38,644 bases of DNA from the IMG/VR virus record IMGVR_UViG_2850756110_000011; one strand, given 5' to 3'. Both the position numbers and the translations under genes were made by a program. Shown here in pieces: positions 17,928-37,711 of this stretch; the first letter of the stretch is position 1, and each line of letters begins with the position of its first letter. Source of the stretch: a virus (lineage: Duplodnaviria; Heunggongvirae; Uroviricota; Caudoviricetes). Under the pieces are notes generated by a model, which saw nothing but the letters and a program-made list of their open reading frames with translations, was not told the DNA's origin and did no database searches.

Positions 17928-18962
17928 TTAAGTAGCTAGTTTATAACTATCAAATTTAACAATGTTATCACTTACCAATTTATTTATTTCCATCATTCTT
18001 TTTTGTAACGGTATTAACTCGTTACGTACAAACACCAGGCTCGCCTTCTCCACATCCCCAAACCCCCCGACATTATTAGGCATAATCCCCATCATTTGCG
18101 GTGGCACACGATGCGCCGCCATCATGTCATCCCGGCTCACGTTCTTGATGTTCAGAAACTCATCCTTCGCCGCGACTTCTGACAACGGGATGATCTGAAG
18201 CCCGTCCTTTTTGCCGTTAGGCGAGTACATAAACAGATTGCGGAAGTTACCTGGTCCTTTGGCGCTTTTCATCGCATTGCGGAGGTTGTTCACATCCTCC
18301 TGGTTTTGCGCGGCATCGGTCATGTACATGATGAAGCCTGCATGACTGCCGTTAATGTAATACTATCGGCGGAACAGCGTGGCGGACTCGTTGAGCAGGG
18401 CTGACGGAATGGCAGAAAGGTAACCTGGCAGGCCGTAGATCTCTTGGTTGATGTCCGGTTCCATCAGATGAAAGATGCTTCCTTTCGTGAACTGATACGG
18501 CTGCGTGGTCATGCCGTATTGCACAAACCAGTAGGTATCCAGGTCTAATCCGCGTCGGGTGTATTTTGCCAGAGCAGGCTCAAGAGCGATGACCTCTCCG
18601 AACCGGTTTGTGCGTTTCTCCAGGTAAGCGTTACCAAATACCAGATAATCCTGCACAAAACGTGAAAAAGCCTGCTGGCTGAGCAGCGGGTGAGGGATGT
18701 AGGTACTGATCAGAATGTTGCATTTCACCGCAATTGGTGAACTGTGATGCACGGCGGCGCGGAAGGTGCGCGCCAGTCCGTCAAAACTCACTGGCGGCTC
18801 ATACCAGCGATCTGTCTGTACGCATTCCACATAGTCCAGTAGTTCACGGCGGTCCAGAACCGGAACGGGATCGCCGAAGCTGAATGCTTCGGCTGAAGTC
18901 TGGTTTTTATGCTGGGTCTGTTTCGTCGCCGCAGCGCGGTTCTTCTTACTCTTTCCCATCAA
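17928..18962 (-). pseudogene. P2 gpQ-like portal protein with an in-frame TAG stop (18363-18365) after codon 199
   Basis: Two ORF calls (18363-18962 and 17928-18329) are in the same frame: ...SATLFRR*YYINGSHAGFIMYMTDAAQNQ... Confidence 0.8.
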
Positions 18963-25824: not shown

Positions 25825-26218
25825 AGCAGTGCCTTATGTCCGTAATAACCCGGACAAACTGCATCTGTTTGTGGATAACGGTTCGCTGGTTGCCTCCGGG
25901 GCTAGCTCCATGTCATGGGAGTACCGCTACACCCTGAACGTGGTGATTGAAGATTTCAGCGGCGACCAGAATCTGCTGATGGCCCCGGTTTTGCTGTGGC
26001 TGCGGGATAACCAGCCCGATGCGATCAATAACCCGGCGTTACGGGAAAAGCTATTCACCTTTGAGGTGGATATTCTGCGCAACGATGTCTGTGATATCAG
26101 CCTTAACCTGCAACTGACGGAGCGTGTGCTGGTCAGCACTGACGGCAGTGTGTCGAACGTTGAAGCGGTAGCGGAACCTGATGAACCTGAAGAAATGTGG
26201 ACGGTGAAACGTGGCTGA
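25787..26218 (+). CDS. tail completion protein, P2 gpR-like (GTG start)
   Basis: VNKPQSLRHALNKAVPYVRNNPDKLHLFVDNGS... with RBS AGGAG 7 nt upstream. Confidence 0.7.
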   Translation: MNKPQSLRHALNKAVPYVRNNPDKLHLFVDNGSLVASGASSMSWEYRYTLNVVIEDFSGDQNLLMAPVLLWLRDNQPDAINNPALREKLFTFEVDILRNDVCDISLNLQLTERVLVSTDGSVSNVEAVAEPDEPEEMWTVKRG

Positions 26219-26612
26219 ATTGCAGAAGGTGGACGACTGGCTGAGTGCATTATTGGCGAATCTGGAGCCAGCCGCAAGAAGCCGCATGATGCGCCAGCTG
26301 GCGCAGGAACTGCGCCGGACACAGCAGCAGAACATCAGGATGCAGCGCAATCCAGATGGCAGCAGTTATGAGCCGCGCAGGGTAACAGCACGCAGCAAAA
26401 AGGGGCGCATCAAACGTCAGATGTTTACAAAGCTGCGCACCACAAAATACCTGAAAACTGCAGCCAGCGCCGATTCTGCCAGCGTACAGTTTGAAGGTAG
26501 GGTGCAGCGCATTGCCCGTATTCACCATTACGGCTTGAGTGATCGCGTCAGTCGAAAAGGTATTTATACCATCTATGCGAAAAGGCAGTTATTAGGTTTT
26601 AATGTCCGGTAA
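26211..26612 (+). pseudogene. tail completion protein, P2 gpS-like, 3' end truncated by IS1 copy 2
   Basis: ORF runs into the IS1 left end at 26608 and terminates on IS1-encoded codons. Confidence 0.7.
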
Positions 26613-26662
26613 TGCTGCCAACTTACTGATTTAGTGTATGATGGTGATTTTAAGGTGCTTGC

Positions 26663-26938
26663 GTGGCTTCCATTTCCATCAGATGTCCTTCCTGCTCCGC
26701 TATTGAAGGCGTGGTGCGTAACGGCAAAAGCACTGCCGGACATCAGCGCTATCTCTGCTCTCATTGCCGTAAAACATGGCAACTACAGTTCACTTACACC
26801 GCCTCTCAGCCCGGTACGCACCAGAAAATCATTGATATGGCCATGAATGGCGTCGGATGTCGCGCCAGTGCACGCATTATGGGCGTTGGCCTCAACACGG
26901 TTTTACGTCACTTAAAAAACTCAGGCCGCAGTCGGTAA
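26663..26938 (+). CDS. insA: IS1 InsA
   Basis: [40 protein letters not shown]... Confidence 0.9.
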
Positions 26939-27360
26939 CCTCGCGCATACAACCGGGCAGTGATGTGATTGTCTGCGCTGAAATGGACGAACAGTGGGGC
27001 TACGTCGGTGCTAAATCACGTCAGCGCTGGCTGTTTTACGCGTATGACAGGATACGGAGGACGGTTGTGGCGCACGTCTTCGGTGAACGCACTCTGGCCA
27101 CACTGGAGCGTCTTCTGAGCCTGCTGTCGGCCTTTGAGGTCGTGGTATGGATGACGGATGGCTGGCCGCTGTATGAATCACGCCTGAAGGGAAAGCTGCA
27201 CGTTATCAGCAAGCGTTACACTCAGCGCATTGAGCGACATAATCTGAATCTGAGACAACATCTGGCAAGGCTGGGACGGAAGTCACTGTCGTTCTCAAAA
27301 TCGGTGGAGCTGCATGACAAGGTCATCGGGCATTATCTGAACATAAAACACTATCAGTAA
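26937..27360 (+). CDS. insB: IS1 InsB' frame (expressed as InsAB' by -1 frameshift)
   Basis: ...[28 protein letters not shown]...[40 protein letters not shown]. Confidence 0.8.
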
Positions 27361-27370
27361 GTTGGCAGCA

Positions 27371-27907
27371 TTACCATGCAGCCCTCACAATATAGTTAAA
27401 AGCGACATTTCGTGGGCGTGTTTCATTCGCACCTGCAGGTTTAGTCGTTGCCGCAACAACACCACCCTCTGTAATAGCCGGGTTGGGAATTGGGTAATTA
27501 TCGAAGTCAATGGCCGGAGACAGGGGCGTGATTTGTTTTAAAATCGTGGTGCCTGTAAAACTTTCCAGAGTCTGGTCGTTAGTTCGTGAAGTCCAGATTC
27601 CCCAATAGTGGTTATGACTGACAATCGCACCGTCCTGAAGCGTTAATAATCCCCTTCCGTTATCCACTCCACGTCCGTCATCCCAGCCACGAATAAACTC
27701 ACCGCGTAAATCAGGCAATTTATTTGTCGGGTAAGCCTTTGCCAGTTCCGGGTATTCTTCAGCAGAAAAAGCCGCACCATTGCATTTCAGCCAGCCTGTC
27801 GGCGGAGTGGCTGAAGGCCACGGAACAGGCACACCAACAGGTAATGCAGAGCCTTCTCCCAAACCAACGTTTAAGAAAATGCAGAGATAATGGCTAACTG
27901 GCATCAT
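27371..27907 (-). CDS. phage tail-fibre variable C-terminal segment with tail-collar domain; orphan alternative segment of an invertible tail-fibre locus (5' limit arbitrary)
   Basis: ...PVGVPVPWPSATPPTGWLKCNGAAFSAEEYPELAKAY...LPDLRGEFIRGWDDGRG...ETRPRNVAFNYIVRAAW; stop codon partly supplied by the IS1 end. Confidence 0.7.
   Translation of the reverse strand: MMPVSHYLCIFLNVGLGEGSALPVGVPVPWPSATPPTGWLKCNGAAFSAEEYPELAKAYPTNKLPDLRGEFIRGWDDGRGVDNGRGLLTLQDGAIVSHNHYWGIWTSRTNDQTLESFTGTTILKQITPLSPAIDFDNYPIPNPAITEGGVVAATTKPAGANETRPRNVAFNYIVRAAW
27854..27879. other. gix/hix-like recombination site for the adjacent invertase
   Basis: TTCTCCCAAACCAACGTTTAAGAAAA resembles my recollection of the 26-bp gix/hix sites (TTCCTGTAAACCGAGGTTTTGGATAA). 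Confidence 0.5.
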
Positions 27908-27934
27908 CCCCGGTTTTTATTCAGGGGATTGATC

Positions 27935-28501
27935 ATGCTTATTGGCTATGTACGCGTGTCAACAAATGACCAGAACACCGATTTGCAACGTAATGCACTG
28001 AACTGCGCGGGATGTGAGCGGATTTTTGAGGATAAAATCAGTGGCACTAAGCCCGACAGACCGGGGCTTAAAAAACTGCTCAGGACACTATCGGCAGGAG
28101 ACACGCTGGTTGTCTGGAAGCTGGACAGACTGGGACGCAGTATGCGGCATCTTGTTACGCTGATAGAAGAGTTGCGCCAGCGTGGTGTGAATTTCCGAAG
28201 CCTGACTGACAGTATTGATACCAGTACCCCAATGGGCCGTTTCTTTTTTCACGTCATGGGGGCTCTGGCTGAAATGGAACGTGAACTGATAGTTGAACGT
28301 ACCAGAGCAGGGCTGGCTGCAGCTCGTGCCAAAGGCAGAGTAGGTGGACTCCGTCCTAAGTTGACCACCGAACAGTGGGCACAGATTGGACGTTTACTCG
28401 AGGCCGGAGAATCAAGACAGCGTATTGCACTGATTTTTGATGTGGGCGTTTCTACCATTTATAGAAAATTTCCGGCGAATGAGAGCAATGAATCGCCCTG
28501 A
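27935..28501 (+). CDS. serine recombinase, DNA invertase of the Gin/Hin/Pin/Cin family
   Basis: MLIGYVRVSTNDQNTDLQRNAL...RLGRSMRHLVTLIEEL...GVSTIYRKF; catalytic Ser in the YVRVST motif, C-terminal HTH. Confidence 0.9.
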   Translation: MLIGYVRVSTNDQNTDLQRNALNCAGCERIFEDKISGTKPDRPGLKKLLRTLSAGDTLVVWKLDRLGRSMRHLVTLIEELRQRGVNFRSLTDSIDTSTPMGRFFFHVMGALAEMERELIVERTRAGLAAARAKGRVGGLRPKLTTEQWAQIGRLLEAGESRQRIALIFDVGVSTIYRKFPANESNESP

Positions 28502-28549
28502 GTCAGTATTATTTTGATTTTTCCTGTAAGCGGACAAATACCGTCATTT

Positions 28550-28567
28550 TGTGTGAATAACGACACA
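28550..28567. promoter_or_regulatory. P2-type late promoter activator site (TGT-N12-ACA) upstream of the sheath gene
   Basis: TGTGTGAATAACGACACA read directly, about 75 bp upstream of the FI start. Confidence 0.45.
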
Positions 28568-28643
28568 ACTGCGCTTAGCTGTTTGTCAGGCACAATCACT
28601 TCAACATAGGGCGAAGCCTAATCCAATCAGGAGGTTCGCCACT

Positions 28644-29816
28644 ATGGCTCAGGATTACCACCACGGGGTGCGCGTTGTTGAAGTCAACGAAGGCACCCGA
28701 TCCATTACCACGGTGAGCACCGCCATCGTGGGTATGGTCTGCACGGGCGATGATGCCGATGCAAAAATGTTTCCTCTTAATAAACCTGTGCTGATCACTG
28801 ATGTGCTGACCGCCAGCGGTAAAGCGGGTGAGTCTGGCACGCTGGCCCGTTCGCTGGATGCCATCGCTGACCAGGCAAAACCCGTGACCGTTGTTGTGCG
28901 TGTGCCGCAGGGTGAAACGGAAGAAGAAACCACAACCAATATCATTGGCGCAGTGACCGCCGAGGGTAAAAAAACAGGTATGAAAGCCCTGTTATCTGCC
29001 CAGTCACAGCTCGGCGTTAAACCGCGCATTCTCGGCGTGCCAGGTCACGACACGAAGGCGGTAGCTACTGAGTTGCTGAGCGTGGCGCAAAGCCTGCGTG
29101 GATTTGCTTACCTGTCAGCGTATGGTTGCAAGACGGTGCAGGAAGCAATCACTTACCGTGAAAACTTCAGTCAGCGTGAAGGAATGCTGATCTGGCCCGA
29201 CTTTACTGGCTGGGACACGGTGCTGAATGCCGAAGCAACGGCTTATGCCACCGCCCGTGCGCTCGGTCTGCGCGCTAAAATTGATGAGCAGACCGGATGG
29301 CACAAAAGCCTGTCCAACGTGGGCGTGAACGGTGTCACCGGAATTTCTGCTGATGTGTTCTGGGATCTGCAGAACCCGGCAACCGATGCAGGTCTGCTTA
29401 ACCAGAACGATATCACCACGCTTATCCGCAAAGACGGTTTCCGCTTCTGGGGTTCCCGCTGTCTGAGCGATGATCCGCTCTTTGCCTTCGAAAACTACAC
29501 CCGCACGGCGCAGGTGCTGATGGACACGATGGCAGAAGCGCACATGTGGGCGGTGGACAAACCGCTGAACCCGTCGCTGGCCCGCGACATTATCGAAGGT
29601 ATCCGCGCCAAAATGCGTAGCCTGGTCAGTCAGGGCTATCTCATTGGTGGTGATTGCTGGCTGGACGAGTCGGTGAACGATAAAGACACGCTGAAAGCCG
29701 GGAAACTCACCATCGATTACGACTACACGCCAGTGCCGCCACTTGAAAACCTGATGCTGCGTCAGCGCATCACCGATCAGTACCTGGTGAATTTCTCCAG
29801 CCAGGTCAGCGCGTAA
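28644..29816 (+). CDS. contractile tail sheath protein, P2 gpFI-like
   Basis: 390 aa, P2 FI-sized, followed by tube gene. Confidence 0.9.
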
Positions 29817-30698: not shown

Positions 30699-30832
30699 CG
30701 GTTGACGATCTGGTGGCTGATATCGCCACCATCTTTCACTGGCCGCCATCCGTTACTGACGTTATGCCGCTGACCGAAGTGCTGGAATGGCGGGATAAAG
30801 CGATTCAGAGAAGCGGGGCCAGCCATGAGTGA
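30396..30832 (+). CDS. tail assembly chaperone extended form (gpE+E'-like) by programmed -1 frameshift at TTTTTTG (30653-30659)
   Basis: -1 frame after the heptamer is open for 58 codons (FFVEEVGACRFTDSLTVDDLVADIATIFHWPP...WRDKAIQRSGASHE) and ends overlapping the tape-measure start. Confidence 0.6.
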
Positions 30833-33800
30833 CAATAACCTGCGTCTGCAGGTGATTCTTAATGCGGTTGACAAACTCACCCGCCCATTTCGATCCGCGC
30901 AGGCCAGTTCAAGAGAACTGGCTGCTGCTGTCAAAAAATCCCGCGATGCAATAAAGCAGCTTGATCAGGCCGGGAGCAGTCTGGACAGCTTCCGAAAGCT
31001 GCAGGCAGAAAATCAGAAATTAGGCGACAGGCTGAACTATGCCCGCCAGCGTGCAAATTTGCTCAGTCAGGAACTGGGAGCGATGGGGCCGCCTTCGCAA
31101 CGTCAGGTTGTTGCTCTGGGCCGTCAACGGCTGGCTGTTCAGCGCCTGGAAGAACGCCAGAAAAAGCTGCAGCAGCAGACGGCGCTTGTGCGTGCAGAAC
31201 TTTATCGTGCTGGTATTTCAGCTAATGATGGCGCCAGTGCGACGGCCCGCATTACCCGTGAAACGATGCGTTATAACAGGCAGCTTTCTGAGCAGGAAGC
31301 GAGGTTACGACGTGTCGGGGAGCAACAGCGAAAAATGCACGCCGCCCGGGGGCTTACGCCAGGCGTCTTGAGGTAAGGGATCGTATTGCAGGTGCCGGAG
31401 CCACCACCACGGCTGCAGGGCTGGCAATGGGCGCACCAGTGATGGCGGCAGTAAAAAGCTATACCAGCATGGAAGATGCCATGAAAGGTGTGGCAAAGCA
31501 GGTCAATGGTCTGCGTGACGATAATGGCAACCGCACTGCGCGTTTTTACGAAATGCAGGGTGCCATCAAGGCTGCCAGCGAACAGTTGCCGATGGAAAAC
31601 GGTGCTGTGGACTTCGCCGCACTGGTTGAAGGTGGTGCGCGCATGAACGTCGCAAACCCTGACGACAGCTGGGAAGACCAGAAACGTGACCTGCTGGCCT
31701 TCGCCAGCACGGCGGCAAAGGCGGCAACAGCCTTTGAACTGCCAGCGGATGAACTGTCAGAAAGTCTGGGGAAAATCGCCCAGCTCTACAAAATCCCTAC
31801 CCGCAATATTGAGCAGCTCGGTGATGCGCTGAACTATCTGGATGATAACGCCATGTCGAAAGGGGCGGACATCATTGATGTCATGCAACGCCTGGGCGGT
31901 GTGGCTGACCGTCTGGATTATCGTAAAGCGGCGGCGCTGGGTTCCACCTTCCTGACACTCGGCGCTGCGCCTGAGGTTGCAGCCAGTGCAGCAAACGCGA
32001 TGGTGCGTGAATTGTCCATTGCCACCATGCAAAGCAAGAGTTTCTTTGAAGGGATGAATCTGCTGAAACTCAATCCAGAAGTGATTGAAAAGCAGATGAC
32101 GAAGGATGCGATGGGAACTATCCAGCGGGTGCTGGAGAAGGTGAATGCGCTGCCACAGGATAAGCGCCTGTCTGCCATGACCATGTTGTTTGGTAAAGAG
32201 TTTGGCGATGACGCAGCGAAACTGGCAAACAACCTGCCGGAACTTCAGCGCCAGTTAAAACTGACTGCGGGCAATGATGCGCTCGGTTCCATGCAGAAAG
32301 AATCCGACATCAACAAGGATTCACTTTCTGCTCAGTGGTTGCTGGTCAAAACCGGAGCACAGAACACCTTCAGCAGCCTGGGGGAAACGCTGCGCCAGCC
32401 GCTGATGGATATTCTGTACACGGTGAAAAGCGTCACGGGGGCGTTGCGTCGCTGGGTGGAAGCTAACCCGGAACTGACGGGCACTCTGATGAAAGTAGCC
32501 GCTGTGGTAGCTGCCGTTACCGTGGGCCTCGGCACCTTAGAGGTGGCGCTGGCTGCAGTGCTGGGGCCGCTGGCAGTCATCCGTCTGGGATTCTCTGTGC
32601 TGGGTATCAAAACGTTACCTTCCGTTACGGCAGCAGTAACCCGAACCAGCAACGCGTTGTCCTGGCTGGCTGGCGCACCACTGGCACTGCTGCGACGCGG
32701 GCTTGCTTCATCGGGCAACGCTGCAGGTTTACTTACTGCGCCGTTGTCGTCTTTGCGCCGCACGGCATCACTGACGGGAAATGTCCTGAAAACTGTAGCA
32801 GGTGCGCCGGTTGCACTTTTGCGGGTCTGGATTATCCGGTTTACGTGCGGTTGCTGTGATGTTTATGAATCCACTGGCGGTACTACGCGGCGGACTGGCT
32901 GCCACAGGCACGGTGCTGCGTATGCTCGCATCCGGTCCACTGGCGATGCTGCGCGTTGCCCTGTATGCCGTCTCTGGTCTGTTAGGTGCTCTGCTCAGTC
33001 TGATAGGTCTTGTGGTTACTGCACTGGCGGGTGTGGCGCTGGTTGTCTGGAAATACTGGCAGCCCATCACCACATTTCTCGGTGGCGTGGTGGAAGGATT
33101 CAAAGCGGCGGCAGGTCCTGTCAGTGCCGCGTTCGAACCGCTTAAGCCTGTGTTCCAGTGGATTGGCGACAAAGTACAGGCGCTGTGGGGCTGGTTTACT
33201 GATCTGCTGACGCCCGTTAAGTCGACCTCTGCCGAACTGCAGAGTGCAGCGGCAATGGGGCGACGATTCGGGGAGGCTCTGGCGGAAGGGCTGAATATGG
33301 TCATGCATCCGCTGGACTCCCTGAAATCCGGCGTTTCCTGGTTGCTGGAGAAACTTGGCATTGTCAGTAAAGAGGCCGCAAAGGCGAAACTGCCGGAAAG
33401 CGTGACGCGTCAGCAACCTGCGACGGTGAATGCAGACGGTAAAGTGATGATGCCATCGGGTGGTTTTCCGTCATGGGGATATGGCTTTGCGGGGATGTAT
33501 GACAGCGGCGGGTATATCCCGCGCGGGCAGTTTGGCATCGTCGGTGAAAACGGGCCGGAAATTGTTAACGGCCCGGCAAATGTGACCAGCCGGAGAAATA
33601 CAGCTGCACTGGCTGCCGTTGTTGCCGGAATGATGGGTGTTGCTGCTACGCCAGCAGAGCTTCCACCGTTGCACCCTTTGGCACTTCCCGCGAAAGGCGG
33701 TGAAGCGATGGTGAGTCGTGCAGCCACTGTGCCGCCCGTTCAACGGATTGAGGCACCGATGCAGATCATCATTCAAACGCAGCCAGGACAAAGTGCGCAG

Positions 33801-33902
33801 GATATTGCGCGGAAGGTGGCCCGCCAGCTTGATGAACGTGAACGCAGGCTGAAGGCAAAAGCCAGGAGTAACTACAGCGATCAGGGGGGATACGACGCAT
33901 GA
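30825..33902 (+). pseudogene. tail tape measure protein (gpT-like), split into three ORFs by a -1 frameshift near 31330 and a +1 frameshift near 32820
   Basis: ORFs 30825-31376, 31427-33145 and 32802-33902 are each tape-measure-like (coiled coil, then GAPLALLR-type repeats); frames differ by -1 then +1. Confidence 0.8.
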
Positions 33903-36025: not shown

Positions 36026-37711
36026 TTATCCTAATCCTGGCCATACCATGACGATGATTGTCCCTGCCAGCGTCAGCAGGACGTTGGCGATTGCGTAGGT
36101 GCCCGCATAGCCCAGCGCAGGGATGTTACTGCGAGCTGTATCACTGATGATCTCCATTGCCGGCGCGCAGGTGCGTGCGCCCATCATTGCGCCGAACAAC
36201 AGTGCGCGGTTCATTCGCAATACATAAGCACCGAACAAGAAACAGATAACCACGGGCACAAGACTGACAATTAATCCGGCAATCAACATCTGACCGCCAA
36301 TCGCGGCCAGGCCGTTATTAATACCGCTACCGGCGCTCAGACCAACGCCTGCCATAAACACCATCAAGCCGAACTCTTTCACCATGCTTAATGCACCTTG
36401 CGGAATGTAACCGAAGGTCGGGTGGTTAGCACGCATAAAGCCCAGCATAATTCCGGCGAATAACAACCCGGCAGCGTTCCCCATGCCGAAACTGAATGTG
36501 CTGAACTGGAAGGTGATCATCCCGATCATCAGCCCAATAACAAAGAAGGCGCAAAATGCCAGCAGGTCAGTGACCTGGCTGTGAATCGAGATAAAGCCGA
36601 TGCGATCGGCAATGGTTTTTACGCGACGGGCATCACCGCTGACTTGTAAAACGTCACCTTTGTTAAGCACGACGTTGTCATCTATCGGCATCTCAATCTG
36701 GCTACGAATGACGCGGTTAAGGAAGCAACCGTGATCGGTCAACTTCAGTTGTGCGAGACGTTTACCTACAGCGTTATGGTTTTTAACGACCACTTCTTCA
36801 GTGACGATACGCATGTCGAGAAGGTCACGATCGAAAACTTCTTTACCGTTACGGAAGCTGGGATCGAGTCGGGCATGGGCGTCGGGATAGCCTACCAACG
36901 CTATTTCATCGCCCATTTGTAGCACGGCATCACCGTCTGGATTTGCCAGAATCCCGTTACGTCGAATACGTTCAATGTAGCAGCCGGTTTGTCGATAAAT
37001 ACCCAGTTCACGCAGATTTTTGCCGTCGGTCCAGGCCACCAGCTCCGGGCCGACGCGATAGGCGCGGATCACCGGTAAATAAACCTTACGGTTGGCATCA
37101 GTGTCCAGGCCACGTTCGCGGGCGATTTGCTGGGCGCTGGTCTGTAAGTCCTGATGCTGCAATTTCGGCAAGTAACGCGCACCAACAATCAAACTCACCA
37201 GACCGATTAAATAGGTTAAGGCATACCCGAGGCTCAGATTATCCAGTGCCAGTGAGAGCTGCCTGCTTTCCATGCCGGAATGACGCAGTGTATCGCCAGC
37301 ACCGACCAGAACCGGTGTCGACGTCATAGAGCCTGCTAACATACCGGCCGTCAGGCCAATATCCCAGCCAAACAGCTTACCTAACCCTAAGGCGATCACC
37401 AGCGCACTGCCAACCATCACCAGTGCTAACATTAGGTAATTTTTCCCATCGCGAAAAAAAATGGAAAAAAAGTTCGGTCCGGCTTCGACCCCGACGCAGA
37501 AAATAAACAGCATAAAGCCAAGATTAAGCGCATCGGTGTTAATGCTGAAATGTTGTTGGCCTAATAACAGCGATACGACTAAAACGCCAATGGAATTACC
37601 CAGTTGGATCGAACCAAGTCGTAACTTTCCGAGACATAGCCCAAGCGCGAGGACCACAAATAATAACAGAATGTAATTCCCATTTAACAATTCGGCGACG
37701 TTTATATTCAC
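36026..37711 (-). CDS. ybjL: putative AAE-family transporter YbjL (chromosomal)
   Basis: 561 aa, [34 protein letters not shown]..., matches my recollection of E. coli YbjL. Confidence 0.9.

Follow-up and report, generated by a model that had tools for sequence, protein, structure and literature searches.

The window analysed here is a stretch of 38,644 bp that holds a P2-like prophage adjoining ybjL (36026-37711, minus strand). At the locus of interest, the gene for a Pin/Gin-type serine DNA invertase of 188 aa (27935-28501, plus strand) lies beside a single 26-bp Din-family crossover site (27854-27879). The site in turn falls within a 178-aa ORF (27371-27907, minus strand, from the ORF list) that is annotated as a ‘phage tail protein’ and contains a spare, inverted variable segment of the kind that encodes the C-terminal part of a tail fibre, StfE-like and of the tail-collar type (27376-27853, minus strand). 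The segment abuts a 768-bp IS1 element (26608-27375), whose left end cuts the P2 tail completion gene S (26211-26607, plus strand). On the other side of the invertase gene lies the tail sheath gene FI (28644-29816, plus strand), identified by its Pfam sheath match and 98.7% identical to FI of the prophage at the same chromosomal position in Escherichia coli ATCC 8739. Since FI follows downstream, the right side of the arrangement is in its native P2-like position.

The identity of the enzyme rests on Pfam domains (Resolvase, E 2.8e-53; HTH_7, E 1.3e-13), on a match to the Mu Gin structures 3uj3 and 4m6f over residues 1-184 (E 2.5e-91), on residue alignment and on blastp identities of 98% to the invertase of the ATCC 8739 P2-like prophage, 85% to that of pro483, 85% to e14 PinE and 74% to Mu Gin. 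It has the build of the Din family, an N-terminal catalytic domain with a nucleophilic serine (Ser9) and a C-terminal HTH domain; a further ORF call, starting at 27890, is an upstream extension of the same invertase ORF. The hallmarks of Fis- and enhancer-dependent invertases are basic helix-B residues at Hin positions 47, 48 and 51 and the Fis-contact residues R154 and L155 of Hin (PMC3798978). In Gin numbering, which is Hin numbering minus 1 and is used throughout for the window enzyme, these correspond to K46, K47 and R50 and to R153 and L154. All five, together with Ser9, are present in the window invertase and in 74 of 74 relatives, which puts the enzyme in the invertase subclass. A resolvase was considered and ruled out on the same residues and on the much weaker match to gamma-delta resolvase (E 5e-33) than to Gin.

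The enhancer itself would be expected within the first ~150 bp of the invertase gene, and a Fis-dependent recombinational enhancer is predicted in the 5′ part of the gene, at 27935-28100, from its position in the Hin, Gin and Pin systems. The Hin enhancer is separated by about 100 bp from one hix site (PMC3798978). Third-codon-position identity over the first 60 nt of the window gene reaches 0.80-0.85 against pro483 and pinE and 0.60 against gin, falling to 0.2-0.5 further 3′, so that conservation is raised over the first 60-120 nt. This raised conservation at synonymous sites is consistent with the putative enhancer.

The crossover site, TTCTCCCAAACC AA CGTTTAAGAAAA, is composed of two 12-bp imperfect inverted half-sites about a 2-bp core, which in the Din family is AA or GA. 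The AA core lies at 27866-27867, between a left half (27854-27865) that faces the segment and a right half that faces the fixed side with the invertase. The 26-bp sequence occurs once in the window, with none expected from 100 shuffles. When aligned to known sites it proves to be of pix type, sharing 25/26 bases both with the invertase-proximal pix site of e14, as read from MG1655, and with the published pixR sequence (PMC3241671 Table 3). Only 17/26 bases are shared with Mu gix, whose sequence was checked against the G-segment boundaries annotated in the Mu record, and the gix core is GA. The single difference from pixR is an A for T at 27874. Decay of the site was considered as its cause and ruled out: about 20 relatives with an intact switch and its partner site have the same variant, and the change is thus a polymorphism. 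The site covers the codons for ...FLNVGLGE, which form the joint between constant and variable parts; in relatives, the tail-fibre gene H reads ...LTYLGLGEAAK..., with the same LGLGE joint where the constant part meets the variable part.

An initial annotation of this DNA had described a Gin/Hin-family invertase next to a gix-like site lying within the 5′ portion of a tail-fibre variable segment in antisense, the layout found at the invertase-proximal border of the Mu G and e14 P segments. The domain matches, the Gin structure match and the identities to PinE and Gin bear out the enzyme, the site does fall at 27854-27879 inside the ORF of 27371-27907, and the layout is the one described, with a gap between site and invertase start of 55 bp in the window and 54 bp in both e14 and Mu. 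That the site is a crossover site also stands; the label ‘gix-like’ has been dropped in favour of pix-type on the counts and cores given above.

The antisense ORF has a Pfam Phage Tail Collar match (E 9e-16). In blastp comparisons its variable segment is 97-98% identical to the inverted segments of ATCC 8739 and pro483 and 58% identical to e14 StfE, with no detectable similarity to Mu S′. Upstream of the site on the coding strand, a fixed-side leader of nine codons (27880-27907, minus strand), with ATGs at 27907 and 27904, opens the ORF; comparison of the leaders of the window, ATCC 8739, pro483 and e14 makes it the counterpart of the e14 stfE start. At its other end the ORF is chimeric. The TAA stop codon of the segment has been broken by IS1, and the frame therefore now runs into IS1 bases and ends ...VRAAW before a stop at 27371. 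A working tail-fibre switch holds alternative variable parts with their cognate chaperones, to be joined to a constant part; the window has one variable part only.

A second crossover site was sought in the window in four ways. The exact site, with up to three mismatches allowed, was found only at 27854-27879; a half-site scoring scan scored only that position; and a rule based on the segment-side half-site, which recovers the partners in relatives, again returned only 27854-27879. A degenerate Din consensus, with up to three mismatches, gave five other matches in the window against 5.1 expected. Paired inverted sites on one molecule are thus missing from these 38.6 kb of chromosome, the extent of the search, in agreement with the initial annotation, which had held the partner site to be absent and had treated a second inverted site together with a constant tail-fibre 5′ region nearby, or an enzyme of the resolvase type with no associated inversion site, as grounds for abandoning its reading; the window holds neither such a site nor such a region, and the enzyme belongs with the invertases.

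Two sites are the norm for this family of switches. Eighty related loci were taken from viral contigs, and sites were counted in the 56 that have at least 3 kb upstream of the invertase. One proximal site and one inverted partner, 1.6-1.9 kb upstream, were found in 46/56. The rest comprised three loci with three sites, six with a single site at the strict threshold and one with none. Among the six single-site loci, one (L005) is an exact copy of the window arrangement and four others have diverged partners that appear at a looser threshold. Two relatives are aberrant in other ways: L030 has a hybrid proximal site, and in L033 the block from V to H is inverted.

The IS1 element accounts for what is missing. 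It was identified by Pfam matches to InsA and the IS1 transposase (insA, 26663-26938; insB′, 26857-27360) and by 23-bp terminal inverted repeats that are 100% complementary (26608-26630 and 27353-27375). Simple insertion of IS1 yields a target duplication of 8-9 bp. Here the 9-mers on the two sides, TTAATGTCC and ATGCAGCCC, are not the same, and no target has been duplicated; the element is not a simple insertion and instead marks a deletion junction. To its left, gene S retains a Pfam match (Phage_tail_S, E 3.4e-36) with some 130-132 of 154 codons left, tblastn aligning the remnant to residues 1-130 of the 154-aa S protein of ATCC 8739. To its right, alignment to the intact phage restarts within the variable segment's stop codon, at 27376. 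Compared with the ATCC 8739 relative about 6.6 kb is missing, or about 5.1 kb if the ancestor did not have the cargo gene of that prophage. Tblastn of the ATCC 8739 cargo ATPase, V, W, J, I, H, tfa and tfaE found no match in the window, so the loss of the constant part and assembly genes that the initial annotation had noted is confirmed. The IS1 deletion is the reason that the tail-fibre joining partner, the chaperones and the baseplate genes are absent from the window.

The surroundings allow the gap to be placed within a known gene order. The late genes of P2-like phages (Peduoviridae) run Q-P / O-N-M-L-X-lysis-R-S-V-W-J-I-H-G-FI-FII-E-T-U-D-ogr. The window has X, holin, lysozyme, LysB, R, S, FI, FII, E, T, U, D and ogr in that order, and the tested genes missing from it are those from V through G; P2-family capsid, portal, GpR, GpU and sheath were also identified. 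The intact relative in ATCC 8739 (locus L001) occupies the same ogr-ybjL site. Its order is X, holin, lysozyme, LysB/C, R, S, a cargo P-loop ATPase, V, W, J, I, H and tfa, followed by an inverted tfaE, an inverted variable segment, the invertase, FI, FII, E, T, U, D and ogr, and its inverted crossover sites are at L001 7624-7649, inside H, and at 9479-9504. The window is colinear with it up to S residue 130 and again from the variable segment onward, at 78-100% identity (tblastn), a range also put at 92-100% for protein identity on the two flanks. The prophage is damaged elsewhere too, in ways that vary among strains. Its portal gene, Q, is split; two frameshifts interrupt the tape-measure gene T, which several sister records have intact (1025 aa); and at about 13530 an IS66 element cuts off the early region.

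The deletion itself does not vary. Proteins identical to the invertase and to the chimeric 178-aa product are recorded from Shigella, with S. dysenteriae named, and the arrangement was found in Shigella assemblies by exact-protein look-up. Eight independent records, complete chromosomes of 4.3-4.8 Mb included, have in common both IS1 junctions, the single site and an identical invertase, and over the locus they agree at 1279-1280 of 1280 bases. CP026840.1 and CP026828.1 are examples of chromosomes with the identical locus. The collection has 46 blocks in which precisely this chimeric protein, with its ...AAW ending, is recorded. An exact 37-mer across the IS1 junction had no match in 185,579 species-representative genomes, and by megablast none of 5,426 complete E. 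coli genomes spans the junction. Because the junctions are shared by the eight records and absent from those complete E. coli and representative genomes, the deletion is real and old enough to have become fixed in a Shigella lineage. A search of the literature on Shigella invertases and IS1 found no publication on this particular relic.

The locus is very probably the invertase-proximal half of a Pin/e14-type invertible tail-fibre (host-range) switch, belonging to a P2-like prophage beside ybjL in the Shigella chromosome, the rest of which was lost through an IS1-associated deletion that left the switch locked and non-functional. In the ancestor, dimers of the invertase would have bound two inverted 26-bp pix sites, one inside H at the ...LGLGE... 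joint and the other 55 bp upstream of the invertase gene, and would have been brought into a synapse with a Fis-bound enhancer in the 5′ part of that gene. Inversion of the ~1.9-kb segment would then have swapped the receptor-binding C-terminus of H together with its cognate chaperone. Two sites and an enhancer are required for the Hin, Gin and Pin invertasome (PMC3798978), and both P2-like prophages and e14 have been seen to undergo such inversions (PMC4272514).

The ~6.6-kb deletion may have arisen by adjacent deletion from IS1 or by recombination between two IS1 copies. It would have taken the 3′ end of S, then V, W, J and I, all of H, distal site included, and the two chaperone genes; its other end lies within the stop codon of the spare segment. 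With one site left, an intramolecular synapse, and hence an invertasome in cis, cannot form; with a single site and a segment that has no joining partner, the switch is permanently locked and without function. The element cannot make tails, the constant part, chaperone and baseplate genes being gone. What the locus lacks of a working switch is the pairing of sites and the constant part with its chaperones; the enzyme has, in addition, lost one conserved feature, an arginine of the DNA-binding arm, probably at a later time.

This arginine is one of two positions at which the relic invertase carries a private substitution, S40P and R139L. Position 40 is proline in 1/74 relatives. Position 139 is arginine in 73/74 relatives, glycine in one and leucine in none, and the leucine codon of the window (CTC at 28349-28351) is CGC in relatives. 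In alignments L139 takes the place of the Gly-Arg arm arginine of Gin and gamma-delta resolvase and, by the numbering offset, of Arg140 of Hin (1hcr alignment), so that the window has G138-L139 where Hin has the minor-groove pair G139-R140. The work of Feng, Johnson and Dickerson in 1994 and of Hughes et al. in 1992 is said to have placed Hin Arg140 in the minor groove and to have found it required for site binding. Judged by the sequence, R139L probably damages the invertase, although an arginine immediately after it (Arg140 of the window enzyme) might partly replace the one lost. The ORF is still of full length, with catalytic Ser9 and the Fis/enhancer-contact residues retained. R139L is consistent with relaxed selection after the switch broke; as a single event in a single lineage, its association with the deletion carries no statistical weight.

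One alternative is that the invertase is still active in trans, on Din-type segments elsewhere in the Shigella chromosome such as those of a prophage resembling e14 or Mu; the locus would then be an orphan enzyme gene with a present-day function and not a fossil. Members of the Din family can complement each other, and the orphan PinQ of the cryptic prophage Qin inverts the P segment of e14 and blocks adsorption of phage T2 (PMC12529663). The invertase ORF is also intact in 8/8 records, with Ser9, K46, K47, R50, R153 and L154 conserved. However, the arginine that is all but universal among relatives has been replaced, no target is known and none lies in the window, and an intact ORF of 188 codons is not unexpected in a recent relic. 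Trans action is accordingly judged improbable. A broader form of the idea, that the invertase and possibly the 178-aa ORF have been retained for a host function, for instance trans action on the Din-type sites of another prophage, is judged quite improbable. If it were true, R139L might shift the site preference of the enzyme rather than abolish its activity, and the case would resemble that of PinQ, where inversion of the e14 P segment yields a receptor-masking chimera.

A lone site could also have its partner outside the window, in which case the pair would bring about a large inversion of the chromosome, or some other rearrangement, instead of switching tail fibres. The two aberrant relatives, L030 and L033, show rearrangements at hybrid or quasi-sites, and the enhancer can work over kilobases (PMC3798978). 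Against this, the eight records all have the same local arrangement, with alternative orientations not seen in any of them, there is no candidate partner up to 27 kb upstream or 10 kb downstream of the site, and the enzyme that would have to act carries R139L. A distant partner seems highly unlikely.

The relic could act without recombination if the 178-aa ORF were expressed alone as a free tail-fibre tip, for example one that masks a surface receptor and so excludes other phages. The initial annotation had stated that the locked switch cannot express this segment. Fusion to a constant part is indeed impossible, but the ORF still stands open from an ATG of its own at 27907, on the fixed side of the site, and the silence of the segment is at most presumed. 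Relatives and e14 stfE also have the leader with this ATG. The homologous ORF of e14 has been claimed to be expressed, and a chimera that starts with the stfE leader is reported to block T2 adsorption (PMC12529663). Other features of the ORF make its expression doubtful. There is no convincing Shine-Dalgarno spacing before the ATG. A scan of 27300-28700 for promoters and terminators gave matches at chance level only, with no promoter-like match upstream on the minus strand. The cognate chaperone gene is deleted, and e14 stfE is marked as a pseudogene in RefSeq. The leader, moreover, is only nine codons long, and an open frame over that length could easily be due to chance. A free tip has, on balance, a very low probability. 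An artefact of assembly, by collapse at the IS1 repeat, is effectively excluded: IS1 is highly repeated in Shigella and repeats are prone to misassembly, but both IS1 junctions are identical in the eight independent records, among them complete chromosomes.

The importance of a locked Pin-type switch of this kind is slight beyond its correct annotation. It provides an example of how IS1 expansion in Shigella dismantles prophages, and of how a decayed phase-variable switch can leave an ‘orphan’ recombinase and a ‘phage tail protein’ ORF that annotation pipelines treat as intact genes. It also cautions that a Pin-like recombinase does not in every case signify an active inversion system. As the junctions are identical in all eight records examined, the locus could be used as a lineage marker. 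Given the precedent of PinQ for trans action by an orphan invertase, the R139L enzyme would be a cheap test case, though one with a low prior probability of activity.

Among the known systems, Mu G/Gin (gixL/gixR, S/U, S′/U′) is of the same mechanism class and has the same layout on the invertase-proximal side, but its gix sites have a GA core and match the window site weakly, and its S′ segment lies beyond the reach of blastp from the window segment. The relic is distinct from the PinB/B-segment system of Shigella, since the published bix sites of PinB are gix-like with a GA core. PinQ of Qin and PinR of Rac are, like the window enzyme, encoded by serine invertase genes in defective prophages that have no complete segment of their own. 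PinQ, which is 38% identical to PinE, acts in trans on e14 with a phenotype (PMC12529663); the window enzyme, in contrast, carries R139L and has no known trans activity.

The P segment of e14 in E. coli K-12 (stfP-tfaP / tfaE-stfE, pixL/pixR, PinE) shares with the window the succession of antisense variable segment, site, gap of ~54-55 bp and invertase, and the first ~80 and last ~18 residues of StfE are nearly identical to those of the window segment, the central part being different. In e14, however, the two sites are both present, as are the two variable parts and the two chaperones, and the segment still inverts (PMC4272514, PMC12529663), whereas the window has only the proximal site and one variable part. 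The host elements differ as well, e14 being lambdoid and the window prophage P2-like.

There is a close likeness to the switches of the P2-like (Peduovirus) prophages of ATCC 8739 and pro483, which are of the same family and, in ATCC 8739, occupy the same insertion site. Their proximal sites match the window site at 25-26 of 26 positions, and in all of them the switch lies between H/G and FI. They retain the distal site in H, the constant part, two chaperones and the baseplate genes, all of which the window has lost, and the window alone has R139L. Phase-variable inversions of P2-like prophages have been shown experimentally in EPEC (PMC4272514). The pix-type variant of the switch is common in P2-like prophages, and it is to this group that the locus belongs. 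It is best classed as a degenerate example of an established kind of switch, an ordinary genomic fossil.

The decay of the P2-like prophage extends to genes beyond the stranded switch. The tape-measure gene T (window 30825-33902) is a pseudogene carrying two frameshifts, at ~31340 and ~32825, and its three pieces, aligned to T of the ATCC 8739 prophage (1025 aa), correspond to residues 1-175, 172-667 and 668-1025; a 1025-aa T is still intact in several of the sister Shigella records. The portal gene Q (17928-18962, minus strand) is likewise split, into two open reading frames that match different parts of a single portal model, TIGR01540, with 17928-18329 matching at model positions 184-311 and 18363-18962 at positions 1-171. 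At its left edge the prophage is truncated within the early region, at ~13530, and the adjoining DNA (3400-13530) is densely stacked with insertion sequences. These comprise two IS66-family elements (~3406-6155 and 11160-13492), two IS110-family transposase genes inverted with respect to each other (6448-7575 on the minus strand and 9651-10826 on the plus strand), and an open reading frame with an IS3-family integrase core (7777-8595). Farther out, window 548-3282 is a remnant of a second prophage, of lambdoid type, with a YdaT-like reading frame (548-970, minus strand), an HTH_3 repressor-like reading frame (1258-1665) and one with a Rha/Ash domain (2458-3282).

The prophage also carries candidate defence cargo. 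Two genes at 15306-17820 together match PDC-M01, a candidate defence system in PADLOC: one hits PDC-M01A, a PtuA-like AAA ATPase (E 3e-55), and the second hits PDC-M01B (E 1e-33). The pair occupies the position of the old/tin cargo of P2, between a remnant of replication gene A on one side and the portal gene on the other. In the intact relative in E. coli ATCC 8739 (L001), S and V are separated by a cargo gene, at L001 2526-4037, whose annotation is a Sll1717-family P-loop ATPase. Its position lies inside the interval that is deleted from the window.

At the right end of IS1, a sigma-70-like match (9/12) at window 27362-27391 on the plus strand is directed towards the invertase gene, with the -35 hexamer within the IS1 end and the -10 hexamer outside it, in flanking sequence. 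Such matches occur around this position at chance frequency, however, with three found against 1.6 expected.

In some related viral loci the crossover sites depart from the usual inverted pair. Hybrid sites are present in two loci, L030 (4920-4945) and L033 (161-186 and 4920-4945), and in each the segment-side half has been swapped out, with the central dinucleotide as the exact breakpoint. L033 further has the entire block from V to the constant part of H in the opposite orientation with respect to S and the invertase. These arrangements look as if the invertase had acted aberrantly on secondary sites and rearranged the DNA there; that would be another route to breakage of the switch. A different departure is seen in L029, L054 and L066, where three pix-type sites, rather than two, lie upstream of the invertase, implying that these switches have several segments and more than two variants of the tail fibre. 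In this they resemble the P2-like prophage locus with three repeats reported in EPEC (PMC4272514).
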